9,225 bases of DNA from Candidatus Iainarchaeum sp. (GCA_903916665.1 CAIWXP010000038.1:1-9225); one strand, 5' to 3'. Counted from the stretch's first letter, positions 2,346 to 9,225 are shown. Numbers and translations: made by a program. The notes: a model not told the origin generated them from the sequence alone.

Positions 2346-2615
2346 TCAAAAAAAGTCTAAATAATACTTTTCATACTCTTTATGATCACCAACAAAATAA
2401 AAATTAACTTGTTTTGTATCTTCAAATATCCTATATAATAATCTATATTGACCAATTTCATCAACAAAAAAATTAGCACCTGATTTCAAATGTCTTTTTG
2501 CAGGATATTCTAGAACTTTTGAGATTTTCTTTACAATACGAATTTTCAATTCACGAGATTGTTTATTAAAATACCTATTCCAATCTTCATCATAAGTAGC
2601 AATATATTCTGACAT
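2346..2615 (-). CDS. Type II toxin-antitoxin system toxin, RelE/ParE superfamily
   Basis: 89-aa ORF located 8 nt downstream of an RHH gene. It shows the typical RelE/ParE layout (IRIVKKISKVLEYP...KRHLKSG....YRLLYRI......VNFYFVGDHKEYEKYY). Confidence 0.75.
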   Translation of the reverse strand: MSEYIATYDEDWNRYFNKQSRELKIRIVKKISKVLEYPAKRHLKSGANFFVDEIGQYRLLYRIFEDTKQVNFYFVGDHKEYEKYYLDFF

Positions 2616-2623
2616 AAAACATA

Positions 2624-2869
2624 TTATTTAAGATATTTTTCGTATTCCCCTAATGCTTCTTTAGAATTTAATATTTTTCTTCTACCTGCTTTTGCTTCTG
2701 TATCTATATAATCTAATTTCTTATTAATTAACTCTATTTCTTTATTTAAATGTTCTTTTCCAAAATAAACAATTGCCATTCTTATTGCCTCAGATTGAGT
2801 ATTAGCATAACCTTCTTCAACCATTAAATCCAAATACTCTTTAGTTACTCCTCTCAATATAACATTCAT
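2624..2869 (-). CDS. Ribbon-helix-helix (CopG/Arc-like) antitoxin
   Basis: 81-aa ORF. N-terminal beta-strand plus two helices (MNVILRGVTKEYLDLMVEEGYANTQSEAIRMAIVYF), then a charged C-terminal tail. It sits directly upstream of the RelE-like gene. AGTGAT lies 5 nt upstream of the ATG. Confidence 0.7.
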   Translation of the reverse strand: MNVILRGVTKEYLDLMVEEGYANTQSEAIRMAIVYFGKEHLNKEIELINKKLDYIDTEAKAGRRKILNSKEALGEYEKYLK

Positions 2870-2900
2870 AATAAATCACTAATATAATTAGAAACAAATG

Positions 2901-2915
2901 ATTTAAATATGCTTT
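2901..2915 (-). promoter_or_regulatory. Putative BRE/TATA promoter of the RHH-RelE operon (AAAGCATATTTAAAT)
   Basis: The minus strand has AAAGC followed by ATATTTAAAT, 31 nt upstream of the ATG at 2869. The same AAAGC+TATA arrangement occurs upstream of the lipoprotein gene (4743-4756). Confidence 0.3.
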
Positions 2916-2937
2916 GTTTTTGATTCATTATTGATCT

Positions 2938-2977
2938 AAAAAGAACCCAAAAGGGTTAGAGGATTCTTCGAATCCTC
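2938..2977 (-). terminator. Two tandem hairpins plus a U5 tract immediately 3' of tRNA-His (terminator-like)
   Basis: On the minus strand, 6 nt after the tRNA 3' end, there is a perfect 8-bp stem GAGGATTC-GAA-GAATCCTC (2977-2959). Next comes a 5-bp stem AACCC-TTTT-GGGTT (2957-2944), then CTTTTT (2943-2938). Confidence 0.4.
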
Positions 2978-2983
2978 ATAAAG

Positions 2984-3056
2984 GACCTGGACCGGGATTT
3001 GGACCCGGGTCAGAAGATCCACAGTCTTCTATCCTAACCACTAGACCATCCAAGTC
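2984..3056 (-). tRNA. tRNA-His: tRNA-His (anticodon GUG) with encoded G-1, no encoded CCA
   Basis: Cloverleaf folded by hand from the minus strand. G-1 is followed by acceptor ACTTGGA/TCCAGGT (one T-G wobble) and C73 opposite G-1. D arm GTCT-AGTGGTTA-GGAT. Anticodon arm GAAGA-CTGTGGA-TCTTC (anticodon GTG). 4-nt variable loop TGAC. T arm CCGGG-TCCAAAT-CCCGG. The 8-bp acceptor with G-1:C73 is the histidine identity hallmark. Confidence 0.9.
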
Positions 3057-3061
3057 ATACA

Positions 3062-3080
3062 AGCTTTTTCAAAAAAAGCT
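3062..3080 (-). terminator. Hairpin with U7 tract (AGCUUUUU-UUG-AAAAAGCU) overlapping the stop codon of the AbrB-like gene
   Basis: Perfect 8-bp inverted repeat 3062-3069/3073-3080 with a 3-nt loop. The minus strand carries T7, the archaeal oligo-T termination signal. It sits between a TATA-like TTCTAAAAAT (3093-3084) and the tRNA 5' end (3056). Confidence 0.35.
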
Positions 3081-3321
3081 GACATTTTTAGAACATAGAG
3101 TAACATTTGTATCTAAACTAGGTTTTTCAAACTTTAATAATAAAGAATCATTATCCTTAAAAAGCTTTAGAATAACTCTTGAATCATTTTTATTTAAGCC
3201 TAAAGAATCTCTTATCTCTAAAGGTAAAACTAGTCTAGATTTAGAATCCAATGCAATTACATAGGTTACTTGGGTGATGAAGTTGATCCCTTCTGTTTAA
3301 TGTATTTGTATTTTCGCTCAT
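3069..3321 (-). pseudogene. AbrB/MazE/SpoVT-type DNA-binding protein gene with an apparent +1 frame disruption near the N-terminus (or sequencing error)
   Basis: The track ORF (3251-3069) starts at a TTG and begins MDSKSRLVLPLEIRDSLGL, the SpoVT-AbrB swapped-hairpin motif. The same frame stays open upstream to 3296 and encodes TEGINFITQVTYVIAL, which supplies the missing first beta-strand but contains no ATG/GTG/TTG. A strong start (GAGGTGAT-GATGAT-ATG, ATG at 3321) lies in the adjacent frame. That frame encodes only 26 aa before a stop at 3243-3241. Confidence 0.55.
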
Positions 3322-3423: not shown

Positions 3424-4701
3424 TTAACCATTTATTGTTAAATTCCAATAGGTTAATTCCTGGCCTGTTGCTTGATCTTCAGTTTGAGGCCCAAATATTC
3501 TACTATTTTGTCCAATCAATTTATTTCCTGTGGCAAAACCATTAATAGATATTTGCATACTCACCATCATTGTTCCTTTACCTAATTGTTGATCTGGTAA
3601 AGTATCACAATAACTATCTCTTGTTGATGAAGGTATTTTATCATAATTTACATCAACATTAAAAAATGGAGAACCATAATAATGAGTATTTACATCAAAT
3701 CCTAAAAAAAGTTTTTTATTCTCAAGAGTTATTGGAATTTCTCCTGTACCTTCTTGTGTTGTAATTGTACATCCAGAATCAACAACACTTTTATAGGACC
3801 AAAGAAATTTTCCCTCTTCCAAATAATAATTCTGAAGTCCAACAGTCATACCATAGGCCTCATATTGTTTTAAGGTTGTTCCAATAATATCATACTTCTC
3901 AGATAAATAAGAATTTGGTTCAGTAGATTCATATTCATAGTGCATTCTACTACACATAGTTTCTGCAGTCTTTTCTTTTGCTTCTGCTTGGTTTTGCAAA
4001 TCTGTCCAACCTAATAAACCACATAAAATAGCAATTTCTTTTAATCTATTAACACAGGTATATTGATCATTTATCTCATTGGAAACTCTTTTCTTAATTG
4101 TATCCCAAACCTGTTGATTTATTTTTCCTGTTGTATCTAAACCCATTTTTTCAATTACTTCTAAAGCATTCAATAACATTGAATTAGAAGAATTAGGATT
4201 ATTTATTATATCTAATGCCCAATTTAATATTTTTGCTTTTGCTGTTGTATCAATTGCACCTTCATTTGGCAAACCTAAAGATTGTGCTAACCCCAAAGCA
4301 TTTAATAATTGCATAGGTGTTGCATTAGGATCATTTATTACTGCATTTGTTTGTGCTGTTGCTGCATCTGTTACTGCTTGTTGCTGTTGAGAAGTCTCTG
4401 TTCCTTGGGCTTGGGCATTGCCTAAATTATTTAATGCATCCTTTGTTGCTTGTTCAGAACCTTTAGGATTTGTAGGTTCAGGCTGTACTGCATTTGGATC
4501 ACTATTCACATTTATTACTTTAGGATCAACTTCACTAGGACCCCCATTATTTGGACTATTGGCAGTACCATTATTATTAGTTAAATTAGATTGTGTTGTT
4601 CCTAAGTTATTGTTATTAGTTGCATTAGAAACACAACCAGATAATAAAACAACACCAATTAAAAAAATACCCAATATAAAAATAGAAACTTTAGCAAGCA
4701 T
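3424..4701 (-). CDS. Predicted secreted lipoprotein with an N/T/Q/P-rich linker, LLNAL-type repeats and a Cys-containing C-terminal domain; function unknown
   Basis: The long ORF in the track starts at a TTG (4713). The ATG at 4701 is preceded by GGTGAT (4710-4705) with a 3-nt spacer. From that start the protein begins MLAKVSIFILGIFLIGVVLLSGC, a hydrophobic signal plus an L-S-G-C lipobox. About 100 residues of low-complexity N/T/Q/P/A sequence follow, then a roughly 300-aa non-repetitive region with 5 further Cys. Confidence 0.8.
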   Translation of the reverse strand: MLAKVSIFILGIFLIGVVLLSGCVSNATNNNNLGTTQSNLTNNNGTANSPNNGGPSEVDPKVINVNSDPNAVQPEPTNPKGSEQATKDALNNLGNAQAQGTETSQQQQAVTDAATAQTNAVINDPNATPMQLLNALGLAQSLGLPNEGAIDTTAKAKILNWALDIINNPNSSNSMLLNALEVIEKMGLDTTGKINQQVWDTIKKRVSNEINDQYTCVNRLKEIAILCGLLGWTDLQNQAEAKEKTAETMCSRMHYEYESTEPNSYLSEKYDIIGTTLKQYEAYGMTVGLQNYYLEEGKFLWSYKSVVDSGCTITTQEGTGEIPITLENKKLFLGFDVNTHYYGSPFFNVDVNYDKIPSSTRDSYCDTLPDQQLGKGTMMVSMQISINGFATGNKLIGQNSRIFGPQTEDQATGQELTYWNLTING

Positions 4702-4742
4702 AGCATCACCCAAACATCAACTGTCAGAATAATGTAAAAGAA

Positions 4743-4758: not shown

Positions 4759-5394
4759 TTAAACTTTAACAATAATAAAATAATGATTCTTTTCAAAAGG
4801 ATTCAAATCTAAAACCTTTTCTACTCTTATCTTAGCCTCTTGGAACTTTCTTACGCTTATATCTAAAACTTGCTTAGGTTGCTTTGTTGAATCTATGCTA
4901 TTTGTTTTCAAAGCAATTGCGTGTGTTCCGGGCTTAGCAAAGAGTTTTATCAAATCAATAAATGTTTCAACCATATTCTTTTGTGCAATGTCTTGAAAAA
5001 CAAAATCAAACTTTTGGCCTTTTAATAAATCACAATCTTCCAAATGACCTGCATCAAATAATAAAGGAAAAACATTGTCTCTTTTTTTAGACAATTCTAA
5101 AAAAGGTAACATTGTAAAACTAGAAATATCAACACCAATAATTGATTTAGCTTCCAAATCAGATAAATGAGAAACTGTTGTTCCTGTCGATGAACCTAAA
5201 TATAAAACATCTTTGTTTTGTAAATCTGGCAAAATAAATCCTTTCTTTATTGCTGCAGAAATCTTTGAACTAAAAGGACTCCATTCTCTCAGATAATAAT
5301 TATCCTGTTTAATAATTACTTCATCATACCATTGTAATTTATCAGAACATTTGGTATACAATCTATCTTTCACATAAACTAAATTTTGATTCAT
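4759..5394 (-). CDS. flpA: Fibrillarin-like rRNA/tRNA 2'-O-methyltransferase (box C/D RNP catalytic subunit)
   Basis: Clear archaeal fibrillarin motifs: YREWSPFSSKISAAIKKG, the SAM-binding VLYLGSSTGTTVSHLSD, FQDIAQKNMVE, HAIALKTNSIDSTKQPKQV and NPFEKNHYFIIV. The track start at 5406 overlaps the upstream stop (TAATG). The ATG at 5394 has GGTGAT (5404-5399) with a 4-nt spacer and is my preferred start. Confidence 0.9.
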   Translation of the reverse strand: MNQNLVYVKDRLYTKCSDKLQWYDEVIIKQDNYYLREWSPFSSKISAAIKKGFILPDLQNKDVLYLGSSTGTTVSHLSDLEAKSIIGVDISSFTMLPFLELSKKRDNVFPLLFDAGHLEDCDLLKGQKFDFVFQDIAQKNMVETFIDLIKLFAKPGTHAIALKTNSIDSTKQPKQVLDISVRKFQEAKIRVEKVLDLNPFEKNHYFIIVKV

Positions 5395-5405
5395 AATTAT
5401 CACCA

Positions 5406-6194
5406 TTAAGGAAAGAAAACATTTCCATATAAATCATAAATAACAATAGGATCATGAGGTCTTAAAGTTAACATTGCTTTTGCTGTTTGATAAACTACTT
5501 TTGGATCAGAATTTAAAACCTGAATTCCTAAAACAGGATTGTGTCCAATATCTTTTATTATGCTCCAATCAGTTCTTCCGAATTGATGATTTAGTCTTCT
5601 TCCATCCCATACATTTGGATCTAAATAAACTATACAATTATATTTTCTCCAATCATATTCTGTTCTTAATACACTAAACTGATAAAAAAAATCATACTCT
5701 GCTTTTTTAGGAGATTTTTCTAAAGGCCGAGCAATATCGTATTCTAATTTAGACATTTCTTTACCTTCAAAAGGATTATCATAACGCAATTTAGAAACTG
5801 CATTTGCTATATTTTCTATACGCATTGCTTTTTCTTTTCTAGATTCTAAAGCATCTCTTTTTGTTTGTGCTATTTGTTTTTGTTGTTCTAAGGGTCTAAC
5901 TGATCTTTGAAAATCTAATTTAAATCTTTCAATTTCTCTCACATATGCTTGAGCTTTTTGTGATCCAAATTTCTTTTGAGCACGTTCAAATTCTTTATAT
6001 CTTTTTTTAAAAGTTCCTTCAGTTAAAGTGAAACTGGTATTATAAATTCGACGACTGGGTTTACGATCAAGTAGCATTTTTTCTGTCCCATCACCTAATG
6101 ATTGTCTATATACTCCAACTCTATGACGCATTACATCAAATGCGCCGGGTTTATATCTAAATCTTTTTTGTGGTTCTTTAGGCATAGTATTCAC
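5406..6194 (-). CDS. Hypothetical protein, no family recognised (basic N-terminus, K/R/E/Q-rich predicted coiled coil, roughly 100-aa C-terminal globular region)
   Basis: 259-262-aa ORF, starting at GTG 6194 or ATG 6185. GTG 6194 overlaps the upstream stop by 4 nt (GTGA). Its stop TAA (5408-5406) overlaps the ATG at 5406 and lies inside the fibrillarin SD region. No motif that I can assign. Confidence 0.75.
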   Translation of the reverse strand: MNTMPKEPQKRFRYKPGAFDVMRHRVGVYRQSLGDGTEKMLLDRKPSRRIYNTSFTLTEGTFKKRYKEFERAQKKFGSQKAQAYVREIERFKLDFQRSVRPLEQQKQIAQTKRDALESRKEKAMRIENIANAVSKLRYDNPFEGKEMSKLEYDIARPLEKSPKKAEYDFFYQFSVLRTEYDWRKYNCIVYLDPNVWDGRRLNHQFGRTDWSIIKDIGHNPVLGIQVLNSDPKVVYQTAKAMLTLRPHDPIVIYDLYGNVFFP

Positions 6195-7543
6195 TCTTTA
6201 ACCGGTTTTAAAACTTTCCAATATCCACCCTTATCTGGCCCAACTCTTTCTAATATCCCTTTTTGCTTTAATTTTTGTAATTGTTTTTCAACAGCTCTTG
6301 TCGTAATATTTAATTTAATGGATAATTCTTTTGCAGAAACTGTTGGTTCAAACTCAATTAAATCCAAGATTCTCTCCGAACTTTTCTCCGAACTTTTCTC
6401 CGAACTCTTCTGAACAATCTTTCCCAAATTATTTGATGCTACATCTTGTGATTTTATAGACCGCGGAAATATAGCTCTAAATTCTAAATCTACAATGAGT
6501 TCAAATTTTGCCTTGGGTTCTACTTTCAATATTTTTTTAATGCCAGTACCCCATCTTTCAACAAAATTAACTCTATGAAATATTTCCGCAATTAAATCAT
6601 TACGTCTTTCAGAAACATTTTTTCTTACTATATCTTTAACTGTAAGCCCTTTATAGAGATTTCCTGGATTTCTTATTTCTACTCTATCACTAAAAACAGC
6701 AATATTTACTGAATCATACATTGTATAATCTCTATGACAGAACGCATTAATTATTGCTTCTCTTAATGCACTTTTATTAATTTCAGGCACATCAATCCTT
6801 CGCATACCGTCTAAACGCATACCTATATTTATATGTTGTAAAATATATGTTTCTGCTCTTTTTATCAATTCAAATAGGTCTCCAACAAAATCTTGCATAT
6901 CAATAGACTCTACTGTACTAGGAGTAACAAATGTAGCACACCTTAACTTAGCATTTTGAATAAATTCTTCTGGATTTTTTGCAAAAAGAACAACACAAGC
7001 ATTCAAGGGATTTTCATTTTTTAATAAATTCAATTTAGTTAAAACATTTATTTTGGAGTCATAATTCAAATTAGATAATTTACAAAACTCTTTTAATTTG
7101 CTTTCAGATATATCTTTCAAACCAGCATCCTTACAAATTAAAGTATCCCATTTACTTGAATTAATATCATTAAAATATCTTTGTAATTCCGCAGTAGTCA
7201 TTTGTTTATCGGAATCAGCAACTCTAATATAATATTTACCATAGGCAGAATAAGGTATCTTATCTCCTTGGAAATCTATTTCTATAAATTCTTTTTGGTC
7301 AATTTGTTTTTTTTCTATTTTAGGATAAATCTTTGGTTCAATATAATCTGAAATTGATTTCTCAATATCTCTTAATGTTTTTTCATTTATTGATTGCACA
7401 AATATTTTTCCTGAATTATCAATACCAAAATATAATTTCCCTTTGTTGTGCTTGTTTAAAATAGCAGATATAGAAATAATTCCTTCTTTTAACTGTGTTA
7501 ATGTTTTCTTCAATTCAATAGTCTCAGATTCTTTAAATTGCAT
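6191..7543 (-). CDS. AlbA_2 (Schlafen-like divergent AAA) + HATPase_c_4 + C-terminal winged-helix protein; putative ATP-dependent DNA-binding regulator (often auto-annotated RecG-like)
   Basis: N-terminal FKESETIELKK (the ESxxLEFK signature of AlbA_2). Central REAIINAFCHRDY, VEIRNPGNL and SERRNDLIAEIFHRVNFVERWGTGIKKI (HATPase_c_4). C-terminal wHTH ILDLIEFEPTVSAKELSIKLNITTRAVEKQLQKLKQKGILERVG. The track start at 7573 overlaps nop5 by 17 nt. The ATG at 7543 (M11) has GGTGA (7552-7548) 4 nt upstream and puts the AlbA_2 motif at the N-terminus, so I prefer it. Confidence 0.85.
   Translation of the reverse strand: MQFKESETIELKKTLTQLKEGIISISAILNKHNKGKLYFGIDNSGKIFVQSINEKTLRDIEKSISDYIEPKIYPKIEKKQIDQKEFIEIDFQGDKIPYSAYGKYYIRVADSDKQMTTAELQRYFNDINSSKWDTLICKDAGLKDISESKLKEFCKLSNLNYDSKINVLTKLNLLKNENPLNACVVLFAKNPEEFIQNAKLRCATFVTPSTVESIDMQDFVGDLFELIKRAETYILQHINIGMRLDGMRRIDVPEINKSALREAIINAFCHRDYTMYDSVNIAVFSDRVEIRNPGNLYKGLTVKDIVRKNVSERRNDLIAEIFHRVNFVERWGTGIKKILKVEPKAKFELIVDLEFRAIFPRSIKSQDVASNNLGKIVQKSSEKSSEKSSERILDLIEFEPTVSAKELSIKLNITTRAVEKQLQKLKQKGILERVGPDKGGYWKVLKPVKE
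6373..6408 (-). repeat. In-frame 12-bp tandem repeat x3 (plus strand tctccgaacttt, third copy with one mismatch) encoding (KSSE)3
   Basis: Direct reading gives 6373-6384, 6385-6396 and 6397-6408. It lies in the linker between the HATPase_c_4 region and the C-terminal wHTH of the 450-aa protein (KSSEKSSEKSSER). Confidence 0.9.
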
Positions 7544-7556
7544 ATCTTCACCACAA

Positions 7557-8372
7557 TCATCTTCTTTTATCAAATCTTTTTTTATCTTTTGGATTTGATT
7601 CTTTTAAATTTAAAGCCTGTTTCTTAATTGGTTTTTCTTTCTCTGCTAAAATGCTTTTCTTTTTTTTCTCTATATCTTCCAATAATTCTTTATGCAAAGG
7701 TTTCTTTGCGTAATCATATCTACTTGCTAAAGAAATCTTTTCAGCCATATGTCTTGCTAATTTACCTTTTTGTTTTGGTGTTAATAAAGTCATTAATGGA
7801 TGCAAGTAAAGCAAACCGTACTTAGGAGAAGATTTACCAAACTTTAAATGTTTAAACATTGCTGTTTCTGCACCAAACAATTGTAATGTTGATGCAGGTA
7901 AACTAGATAAACGTTTCAAACTATGAGCTTGATTTAGAAATCGCACAGTTAAAAGAGGTCCTAAAATGTTTGTTAAATTAGGATAAAGATCCTTTGCTTT
8001 CTTTGTTAAAAAATTTTCTATCTTTGATGCATTGGAATAAACATTTAATAATGTTGTTGCTAAACTTTTTATTTGTGTTAAATCATCTTTATGTAAACCC
8101 TGAGATAAATATTTATCTTTTTCTAATTGATTTACTTCACTATCAGAAAGATATTTAACAAACTTAAAACTATCTTTCTTTAATTCATCATACTTTTGAC
8201 TATTATGTAAAGAATACCAATCTTTTAAATATTCAAAAAAAGTATTAAATTGTTTTTGACACAGATCAAAATTTGCCAAACCTCTTAACAAACTTTGTTC
8301 TTCAATATTATTTTCAGAATAATCTTTTATTGCATCTTCTGTTTGTTTAATAAACTCTTTTTTATTTAACAT
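7557..8372 (-). CDS. nop5: Nop5 (Nop56/58) box C/D RNP scaffold homologue, short form lacking the N-terminal fibrillarin-binding domain
   Basis: 271 aa. LKDWYSLH matches the coiled-coil entry motif (RLREWYSLHFPEL in canonical Nop5). The Nop domain is clear: YPNLTNILGPLLTVRFLNQAHSLKRLSSLPASTLQLFGAETAMFKHL..G...PKYGLLYLHP......KQKGKLARHMAEKISLASRYDY. It ends in a Lys-rich tail. GGTGAT lies 5 nt upstream of the ATG at 8372. Only 47 nt separate it from the upstream gene, so there is no room for an N-terminal domain exon. Confidence 0.85.
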   Translation of the reverse strand: MLNKKEFIKQTEDAIKDYSENNIEEQSLLRGLANFDLCQKQFNTFFEYLKDWYSLHNSQKYDELKKDSFKFVKYLSDSEVNQLEKDKYLSQGLHKDDLTQIKSLATTLLNVYSNASKIENFLTKKAKDLYPNLTNILGPLLTVRFLNQAHSLKRLSSLPASTLQLFGAETAMFKHLKFGKSSPKYGLLYLHPLMTLLTPKQKGKLARHMAEKISLASRYDYAKKPLHKELLEDIEKKKKSILAEKEKPIKKQALNLKESNPKDKKRFDKRR

Positions 8373-8419
8373 TAAATATCACCAATTATAAATATAAATC
8401 TAAAATTATTTTGTTAATA

Positions 8420-9225
8420 TTACTCTACAGAATATCTATGATGTTTTTGGTTAAAGGTTTCTTCCTTAGAATATCGTTTCATTATATCAATTAACATTTC
8501 ACCAAATACACTGCTTTGCTTTTCATTATTAAGCTCAGCAAAAACATTTTTTAAAATCTCATTGGTTGCCATTACCTGAGGAACAACAACATATTTTATT
8601 CCTCTTTTATAAAGATCAACAGCTTCTTGAACAAAATAAGCTCTCATAAATACTGGCACTTTAGTCGCATCAACATAGGATAATATAACTTCATTTACAT
8701 CATAGTAAGGTATTGTTATAATTACTGCTCTTGCTTTATTCAAATTTATTTTTTCTAATATTTCTATTGAATCTGCCTGCCCACAAACTGCATAAACATT
8801 CAATTTCATTGCGCTAATAATTGTATCAGGGTCATCATCAACAACAACAATATTTTTTGGTGCTATTAAATTACTTCTTAACAATCCTTCTAATACTCCC
8901 GAACCCATACGACCTAATCCAAATAAAACAACATGATTTTCAAAATCTTTCTCGGAAATATTATCCAATTCCTCTTTTCTTTGTTTGTATATAAATTTAG
9001 AAAAGTATTTGTTTATAGGATGTAATACTTTTTCAAAAAATGTATTCTTTGATAAAACATAGGGCGTTAAAATTAAAGTAACTGCAATAAATAAAATTAT
9101 TGTTGTACTAATTGATTCATTGATAATTGCACCTAAAGTTGCAAATTGAACAATAACCAACGAAAATTCACTTATTTGAAATAAACCAGAAGAAACATAG
9201 AACGATGTTCTTTCATCATAGCCAG
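8420..9225 (-). CDS. Monovalent cation:proton antiporter (CPA2/Kef-like) C-terminal part with RCK/TrkA-N domain; 5' end outside the window
   Basis: The track starts at a TTG (9160), but the frame stays open to the window edge (..GYDERTSFYVSSGLFQISEFSLVIVQFATLG..). This resembles the last TM helices of Na+/H+ exchanger-family proteins. A Rossmann GxGxxG (HVVLFGLGRMGSGVLEGL) follows, typical of TrkA-N/RCK. Confidence 0.75.
   Translation of the reverse strand, partial: GYDERTSFYVSSGLFQISEFSLVIVQFATLGAIINESISTTIILFIAVTLILTPYVLSKNTFFEKVLHPINKYFSKFIYKQRKEELDNISEKDFENHVVLFGLGRMGSGVLEGLLRSNLIAPKNIVVVDDDPDTIISAMKLNVYAVCGQADSIEILEKINLNKARAVIITIPYYDVNEVILSYVDATKVPVFMRAYFVQEAVDLYKRGIKYVVVPQVMATNEILKNVFAELNNEKQSSVFGEMLIDIMKRYSKEETFNQKHHRYSVE

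Follow-up and report, generated by a model that had tools for sequence, protein, structure and literature searches.

To our knowledge, the contact between the N-terminal domain (NTD) of Nop5 and fibrillarin is treated as the universal route by which the methyltransferase enters box C/D ribonucleoproteins (RNPs), in archaea as well as in eukaryotes. When fibrillarin is to be removed in the laboratory, the standard procedure is to delete this domain. Here, we analyzed a stretch of 9,225 nucleotides from Candidatus Iainarchaeum sp. (GCA_903916665.1 CAIWXP010000038.1:1-9225; hereafter the window), which encodes on its minus strand a Nop5 of 271 amino acids (aa) at 7557..8372 and a fibrillarin of 215 aa at 4759..5406. 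Comparison of sequences, together with a predicted structure, confirmed that this open reading frame (ORF) is a Nop5 naturally lacking the NTD, with a start where the canonical NTD ends, and consisting of a coiled coil, a Nop domain and a basic tail. No description of a natural NTD-less archaeal Nop5 was found in our search of the literature, which was incomplete, so an earlier mention is possible.

The closest described protein is archaeal Nop5 (aNOP56, COG1498; structures 2NNW/3NMU and 3ID5/3PLA), which has the same Nop core and coiled coil as the window protein (phmmer against the PDB, E=1e-28 to 3e-31; Foldseek probability 1.0) and occupies the same position upstream of fibrillarin as the gene does in relatives of the window protein. 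However, archaeal Nop5 carries an NTD (residues 1-123 in P. furiosus, 1-132 in S. solfataricus and 1-71 in A. fulgidus), the whole of which is missing from the window protein. The engineered NTD-deleted forms, 3ICX (S. solfataricus 135-380) and 3NVI (P. furiosus, with L7Ae and C/D RNA), have the same boundaries as the window protein and are its best full-length structural matches, with target-normalized template modeling scores (TM-scores) of 0.74 and 0.71. These are laboratory constructs made to abolish fibrillarin binding, whereas the window protein is natural, is under selection and has its own conserved N-terminal helix of about 30 residues. A. fulgidus Nop5 (1NT2) is of similar length, with a solved chain of 258 residues in which position 127 aligns to residue 118 of the window protein; it combines a compact 71-residue NTD with a short coiled coil, while the window protein spends its N-terminal residues on a long coiled coil with a tip insertion. 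Eukaryotic Prp31 of the U4 snRNP (2OZB, 3SIU) shares the layout of coiled coil and Nop domain and the lack of an NTD. Its partners are an L7Ae-family protein and K-turn RNA, with no methyltransferase, and it has been described as a Nop5 derivative that lost the NTD (PMC11213020). In sequence, Nop5 is by far the better match to the window protein (E=1e-31, compared with E=2e-9 for Prp31). Because the window protein is archaeal and is encoded with fibrillarin in relatives, its NTD loss is independent of, and convergent with, that of Prp31. By descent, as judged from these comparisons, the window protein is a Nop5, one that lacks the family's fibrillarin-docking NTD and scores below the threshold of the curated equivalog model.

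Absence of the domain was examined with an NTD profile built from 70 NTD-bearing relatives. As a positive control, this profile matched the Nop5 structures from Pyrococcus and Sulfolobus at their N-termini (E=1e-10 to 1e-6), and the profile of the short Nop5 family showed no similarity to it (hhalign probability 0.7%). By sequence, the short Nop5 starts directly after the aromatic helix alpha6 of the NTD, which packs on fibrillarin: P0032, an NTD-bearing relative, has TKNIQLTKEAIKK directly behind its aromatic cluster YFNDFY, whereas the window protein begins with MLNKKEFIKQTEDAIK. Eighteen close homologues from independent samples (50-84% identity, 240-296 aa) start with the same Met, and their first 30 residues are strongly conserved. 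The gene is preceded by a 47-nt spacer (8373..8419, minus strand) that holds an A/T-rich, TATA-like stretch (8386-8398, minus strand) and a Shine-Dalgarno sequence, GGTGA (8383..8379, minus strand), 6 nt 5′ of the ATG. Since the antiporter gene ends 47 nt upstream, there is no room for a hidden NTD. The earlier note on this DNA had described the 271-aa ORF, its good Shine-Dalgarno sequence, the 47-nt gap and an NTD that is absent rather than mis-annotated; all of this is correct, with the minus strand, which it did not state, to be added, and the absence holds across lineages. Its yardstick was too narrow, as many NTD-bearing archaeal Nop5 proteins measure 260-330 aa rather than the 380-420 aa it took as canonical, and short length by itself is no sign of NTD loss, given the similar length of the NTD-bearing A. 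fulgidus protein. Likewise, its figure of 100-120 missing residues becomes about 110-130 in comparison with Sulfolobus and Pyrococcus, but about 60-85 in comparison with the nearest NTD-bearing DPANN proteins. The predicted Pfam outcome, a match to the Nop domain (PF01798) and none to NOP5NT (PF08156), was obtained, but the second half is not diagnostic, because PF08156 also misses P0032 and P0034, which clearly bear an NTD. PF08156 was therefore rejected as an NTD test in favor of the NTD profile, the profile-profile comparison and the structure model, and because it misses compact DPANN NTDs, Pfam domain architectures are unusable for surveying NTD loss. With the NTD truly absent, the recruitment of fibrillarin comes into question.

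Nop (residues 40-237, profile positions 7-225 of 228) is the only Pfam match in the short protein, at 128 bits and E=4.6e-37. The NCBIfam aNOP56 equivalog (PRK14552) scored 145.3 bits, below its cut-off of 452, and was matched over profile positions 226-405 of 417 only. In alignments with PDB sequences, residues 31-73 correspond to S. solfataricus Nop5 143-184, and residues 34-238 to positions 13-238 of 3icx_A, the engineered Nop5(135-380); the short Nop5 begins at about the equivalent of S. solfataricus residue 115-120. An AlphaFold2 model built on the 18 homologues, with a predicted local distance difference test score (pLDDT) of 80, was all-helical (4-21, 23-54, small helices within 58-92, 95-129, then the Nop core) and contained no beta-strand. 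In this model, residues 1-54 (8211..8372, minus strand) form the long N-terminal helix and the first coiled-coil helix (4-21 and 23-54, pLDDT 83-92), and the homologue alignment shows K4, F7, T11, E12, N22, E25 and S27 to be invariant in the clade within the first 30 residues. This segment ends in D-W-Y-S-L-H (W52); the W-Y-S-L-H motif was thus rightly placed near residue 50 in the earlier note (it spans 52-56), but in the model it closes the first long helix rather than opening the coiled coil. Residues 55-94 (8091..8210, minus strand) are modeled as short helices that make up the tip insertion of the coiled coil, with gaps relative to the S. solfataricus tip, and residues 95-129 (7986..8090, minus strand) as its second long helix (pLDDT >90). 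The two-helix coiled coil as a whole (helices 4-54 and 95-129 plus the tip insertion) has a pLDDT mostly >80 and superposes on Nop5 structures. Residues 130-243 (7644..7985, minus strand) are the predicted Nop core, or L7Ae/K-turn RNA-binding module, in which the motifs GAETAMFKH, PKYG and KGKLAR are present, and residues 244-271 with the stop codon (7557..7643, minus strand) encode a lysine-rich, disordered C-terminal tail (pLDDT <50) whose length differs among homologues. Target-normalized Foldseek TM-scores were 0.4-0.5 for full-length Nop5, of which the model covers just a part, 0.71-0.74 for 3ICX and 3NVI, and about 0.72 for Prp31. Taken together, the alignments and the model show that the short Nop5 keeps the predicted coiled-coil dimerization element and the predicted L7Ae/K-turn RNA-binding Nop element, and the short protein composed of coiled coil and Nop domain was shown to be under purifying selection.

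The truncation is not confined to the window. When 1.84 billion cluster representatives were searched with a profile, 3116 Nop-domain matches were obtained, and among the best 150 of these, the offset between protein start and profile start was bimodal: about 30 start with Met at the boundary of the NTD and the coiled coil (M..LRKK..TKK.V...D..IIQA..LD.L...N..RLREWY), and about 110 bear 50-120 additional N-terminal residues. We then surveyed the 80 best Nop5 loci in GTDB species-representative genomes and judged them on stop-to-stop ORFs, so that the choice of start codon is irrelevant. Related lineages, which the earlier note had named as a place to look, were found to share the truncation, with about 40 of the 80 loci lacking a folded NTD. 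At 33 loci there is no room for the domain, as the frame permits at most about 45, and usually at most 27, residues before the profile start; where a Met precedes the profile start at these loci, the first one precedes the conserved Trp by 49-64 residues. Inspection showed another two loci, L064 and L080, to be NTD-less, and at a further six (L023, L038, L065, L078, L081 and L084), a low-complexity N-terminal tail rich in R, G, S and K replaces the folded NTD. The NTD-less form was found at all sampled loci of Iainarchaeota/Diapherotrites and Micrarchaeota and at about half of the Woesearchaeota loci, while the NTD is kept in Methanobacteriales, Methanosarcinales, Thermoplasmata, Nanoarchaeia, Altiarchaeota and some Woesearchaeota. 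The window organism is itself a member of Iainarchaeota, its nearest named relative being Ca. Diapherotrites archaeon CG08_land_8_20_14_0_20_30_16 (Nanobdellati; Ca. Iainarchaeota), at 68% identity, and these data show that the NTD-less trait is fixed in the window clade. In a rough neighbor-joining tree, NTD-less proteins fall into several clades interleaved with NTD-bearing ones, and Fitch parsimony on this tree gave 8 changes, a count that is too high and predates the reclassification of L038 and L065 as NTD-less. Several independent NTD losses are likely, as far as this weak sequence tree can tell.

Low-complexity tails are found at both ends of DPANN Nop5 proteins. The N-terminal tails of L065, L038, L023, L078, L081 and L084 are R/G/S-rich, with repeats resembling those of glycine-arginine-rich (GAR) domains, such as RSREGG; P0037, P0127, P0086, P0134 and P0139 carry K/R/N-rich C-terminal tails of up to about 280 residues. 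Such tails recall the GAR domain of eukaryotic fibrillarin and the KKE/D tails of Nop56/58. The long NTD-less proteins (P0037, of 529 aa, P0127, P0086 and others) were considered as Nop5-fibrillarin fusions and rejected, their extensions being low-complexity basic tails.

On the side of fibrillarin, three elements dock on the NTD in every archaeal and yeast structure (PMC7962484): a conserved Tyr (Y102 in P. furiosus and M. jannaschii), whose side is buried by an aromatic cluster of Nop5 alpha6; helix alpha4, wedged between alpha5 and alpha6 of Nop5; and a basic residue equivalent to K205 of Nop1. The window fibrillarin was recognized by Pfam PF01269 at 151 bits and by NCBIfam NF003276 at 177.6 bits (cut-off 113), and it retains K58, D130, D150, K179, H220 and the GxGTT motif (M. 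jannaschii numbering throughout). The claim of the earlier note that fibrillarin looks intact therefore holds for the catalytic and S-adenosylmethionine-binding motifs but not for the NTD-docking surface, which has diverged in the clade. This was seen in an alignment of 54 fibrillarin sequences from the surveyed loci and two reference sequences, with interface positions fixed in advance from PMC7962484. In the window clade, Y102 is replaced by Ile, beside a two-residue gap that deletes the otherwise invariant G99; the P-x-x-Y motif of alpha4, conserved from yeast to archaea, has become L-E-D-C (P134 to Leu, Y137 to Cys); and the docking basic residue, R112, is Leu. Of the class-conserved columns, 5 of 8 at the interface were changed in this clade, compared with 18 of 79 elsewhere in fibrillarin (Fisher one-sided p=0.028), and at 6 of 8, compared with 13 of 79, in the sister pair L008/L009. 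The replacement alpha4 is itself conserved within the window clade, roughly as GHL[DE]xCxLL, and its conservation in the alignment suggests remodeling rather than decay. By sequence, both halves of the canonical Nop5-fibrillarin interface are gone in the window clade.

This divergence differs among lineages. One of the eight interface columns is changed in a second Iainarchaeota group, and none in the fibrillarins of NTD-less Woesearchaeota (L029, L037, L045, L047, L053, L058 and L075), as in their NTD-bearing relatives. The Woesearchaeota surface thus appears to be still constrained; the NTD may have been lost only recently, a partner may act in trans, or the surface may serve some other role. 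The conserved Tyr was tried as a marker of NTD loss across lineages and rejected, as DPANN have F, Y or L at this position whether or not their Nop5 bears an NTD; it is aberrant only in the window clade and its sister. Other changes at conserved positions of the clade fibrillarin are E48Y, Y49L, R56S, Q156M, R181N (KARSID to KTNSID) and D219N, and its substrate handling or activity may be altered.

How fibrillarin reaches its RNA in these organisms can be read in more than one way. We infer that the short Nop5 is an L7Ae/K-turn RNA scaffold that recruits fibrillarin through a non-canonical contact, and we regard this as having about an even chance of being right. By analogy with the engineered truncated protein in 3NVI, the short Nop5 would dimerize and assemble with L7Ae on K-turn (box C/D) RNAs; L7Ae is also encoded in the genomes of L001 (at 317-682) and L002, which have a short Nop5. 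Fibrillarin would still work with it, as its catalytic motifs are intact and its gene is normally adjacent in relatives. Because the docking of the NTD to alpha4 and the Tyr is gone on both partners in the window clade, fibrillarin would have to be recruited differently. It might contact the conserved N-terminal helix or the coiled coil of Nop5 or, alternatively, the Nop core and the guide-target duplex, and either contact would probably be weaker or more transient than canonical docking. We favor recruitment of this kind because nop5 and fib persistently stay linked, the N-terminal helix is conserved, and alpha4 is remodeled yet conserved. Nevertheless, several observations weigh against it. 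The window-clade fibrillarin evolves fast overall, with 23 of 87 conserved columns changed, including R181N in KARSID and Q156M, so that the enrichment at the interface is modest. Unrelated genes lie between nop5 and fib in the window and at several other Iainarchaeota loci, implying that co-expression is not obligatory. A strict-pattern search for box C/D sRNA genes across 171 kb of related contigs, with zero hits expected by chance and low sensitivity, found none, and an Rfam search of the window, also insensitive, found only a tRNA and no box C/D sRNA. Furthermore, no fibrillarin gene was present within 5 kb of any sampled NTD-less locus of Micrarchaeota (L019, L034, L039, L041, L046, L049, L056, L063, L064, L070, L073, L076, L080 and L083), while NTD-less loci of Iainarchaeota and Woesearchaeota do have one within this distance.

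The main rival explanation is that the two proteins have become functionally uncoupled. The short Nop5 and L7Ae would then form a non-catalytic K-turn RNP without fibrillarin, serving for example as a chaperone or scaffold for rRNA folding in the manner of Prp31 or U3, and fibrillarin would act alone, act with another partner or be in the course of being lost. Every known Nop5 element that contacts fibrillarin is absent, the docking hot spots of fibrillarin have diverged in the window clade, genes are inserted between nop5 and fib there and in other Iainarchaeota, the Micrarchaeota loci have no fibrillarin nearby, and an engineered NTD-deleted Nop5 still binds L7Ae and C/D RNA, according to the title of PDB 3NVI. 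Such uncoupling is possible, but we consider it on the whole rather unlikely, as close adjacency of nop5 and fib survives in many NTD-less lineages, the new alpha4 sequence is conserved within the window clade, and the fibrillarins of NTD-less Woesearchaeota are unchanged at all eight interface columns, which implies that something still binds there.

Could the missing domain instead be supplied in trans, as a separate small protein encoded elsewhere in the genome that links fibrillarin with the RNP? DPANN genomes do have split genes, the canonical docking surface kept by NTD-less Woesearchaeota would fit such a partner, and short, divergent NTDs are hard to detect, as Pfam misses them. We ran the NTD profile with all filters off on every ORF of at least 40 aa in all loci; it recovered the NTD within most long Nop5 genes and gave no credible match within 5 kb of any NTD-less gene sampled, a range that covers the surroundings of the loci rather than whole genomes. 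A search of the NTD alignment against 5.8 billion proteins returned a single match, a frameshifted NTD that immediately precedes its Nop ORF, and was too insensitive to prove absence. The only seemingly stand-alone matches were interrupted NTDs directly upstream of the Nop ORF, at L040 (650-1729), L054 (4556-5801) and L085 (1836-2986) on contigs of metagenome-assembled genomes; the NTD and the remainder of nop5 are separated by an in-frame TAA in L040 and by frameshifts in L054 and L085, which could be sequencing errors, pseudogenes or real splits. Three kinds of neighboring genes were examined as candidates and rejected. In relatives, the conserved ORF directly downstream of fib encodes a membrane protein (L001 and L002) or an unrelated protein of 136 aa (L004); the genes between nop5 and fib differ by genome (AlbA_2-type, metallo-beta-lactamase (MBL)-fold-like and membrane proteins) and do not form a conserved adaptor; and the 262-aa ORF next to fib in the window showed no NTD similarity (hhalign 0.2% against the NTD profile), has one homologue only and yielded an AlphaFold2 model with a pLDDT of 38, which is unusable. 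A free NTD would also have no covalent link to the coiled coil and would need a new contact to tether fibrillarin, and the docking surface of the window-clade fibrillarin is itself lost. We regard a separate NTD gene as improbable.

It is more improbable still that the short protein is a non-orthologous Nop-domain paralogue and that a canonical full-length Nop5 is encoded elsewhere. The equivalog score is far under its cut-off (145 vs 452 bits), and the search covered loci with their surroundings; however, a missing NTD and a shortened coiled coil would yield such a low score, and in relatives the gene occupies the canonical Nop5 position directly upstream of fibrillarin. No assembly supplies two loci among the 80 best, and COG1498 serves as a single-copy archaeal marker (PMC9258230). 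The window ORF is the genuine, and probably the only, Nop5 of this organism; of the refuting finds named in the earlier note, neither a second Nop5 paralogue nor a stand-alone NTD gene was found in the loci and 5 kb on either side. Finally, it is next to impossible that the short form is an artifact of pseudogenization, misassembly or a misplaced start codon, as the same N-terminus recurs in 18 homologues from independent samples with a strongly conserved N-terminal helix, the upstream gene stops 47 nt away in conserved synteny, and the stop-to-stop reading frames of dozens of genomes agree.

The window has a G+C content of 28%, and the genes around nop5 are transcribed from the minus strand in the order antiporter, nop5, SLFN_AlbA_2 gene, 262-aa ORF and fibrillarin. 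Of the antiporter gene, which is of the Kef type (cation/H+) and has a TrkA_N domain, the window holds the 3′ part (8420..9225, minus strand), with a stop codon ending at 8420 and a reading frame that continues past the window end; the order of antiporter and short nop5 recurs in the relative L004. In the window, nop5 and fib are separated by two genes, while they are directly adjacent in L001, L002 and L004, and they overlap or lie a few nt apart in L001, L002, L004, L008, L009, L037, L045, L058 and L075. The first of the two inserted genes (6191..7573, minus strand) encodes 460 aa with SLFN_AlbA_2, HATPase_c_4 and winged helix-turn-helix domains. It is listed with a TTG start that overlaps the nop5 stop, but translation likely begins at the ATG at 7543, which agrees with the start of the L005 homologue. 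This gene matches PHROG 12156, 'DNA helicase' (E=4e-70), and the same insertion is present in L005 (5815-7206), the nearest GTDB relative, and not in L001, L002 or L004. The second, the orphan 262-aa ORF (5406..6194, minus strand), runs with its stop into the start of the fibrillarin gene. Neither Pfam nor PHROG gave a match to it, and its sole detectable homologue is P0180, on a related contig (L086, 1738-2559), with 42% identity overall and nearly identical C-terminal residues (about 60); P0180 lies directly downstream of fibrillarin and the 262-aa ORF upstream, so that both adjoin fib on opposite sides.

Further along the minus strand, a 429-aa N/T/Q-rich protein (3424-4713) has no family match and begins with a hydrophobic segment ending in Cys (LLSGC) that reads like a lipoprotein signal; a homologue is found in L086 (3069-4199) in similar synteny. 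A tRNA-His (GTG) at 2983-3055 is flanked by putative toxin-antitoxin genes (2346-3251, minus strand), which comprise, on one side, a RelE-like toxin (2346-2615) and a small ORF upstream of it (2624-2869) with no family match and, on the other, a small ORF (3069-3251) that weakly matches an antitoxin family of PHROG.

Beyond the window, we tentatively propose, at somewhat short of an even chance, that several DPANN phyla have box C/D machinery built on a Nop5 that resembles Prp31, is unable to tether fibrillarin by the canonical contact, and has either gained a new contact or become a methyltransferase-free RNA chaperone. In the window clade, a new contact would involve the conserved N-terminal helix and the remodeled, Cys-containing alpha4 of fibrillarin. 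For annotation, pipelines and marker-gene sets for DPANN will under-score NTD-less Nop5 against equivalog models. Absence of the tether across entire phyla would surprise box C/D specialists, and the recruitment is directly testable. Archaeal lineages that have fixed the loss of the NTD but kept fibrillarin are natural test cases for whether guided 2′-O-methylation is possible without stable tethering, which minimal contacts position fibrillarin, and how a Nop5 becomes a Prp31-like, enzyme-free K-turn scaffold. If the short Nop5 and L7Ae do act as a methyltransferase-free chaperone, the origin of Prp31 would have a parallel in archaea, reached by convergence.

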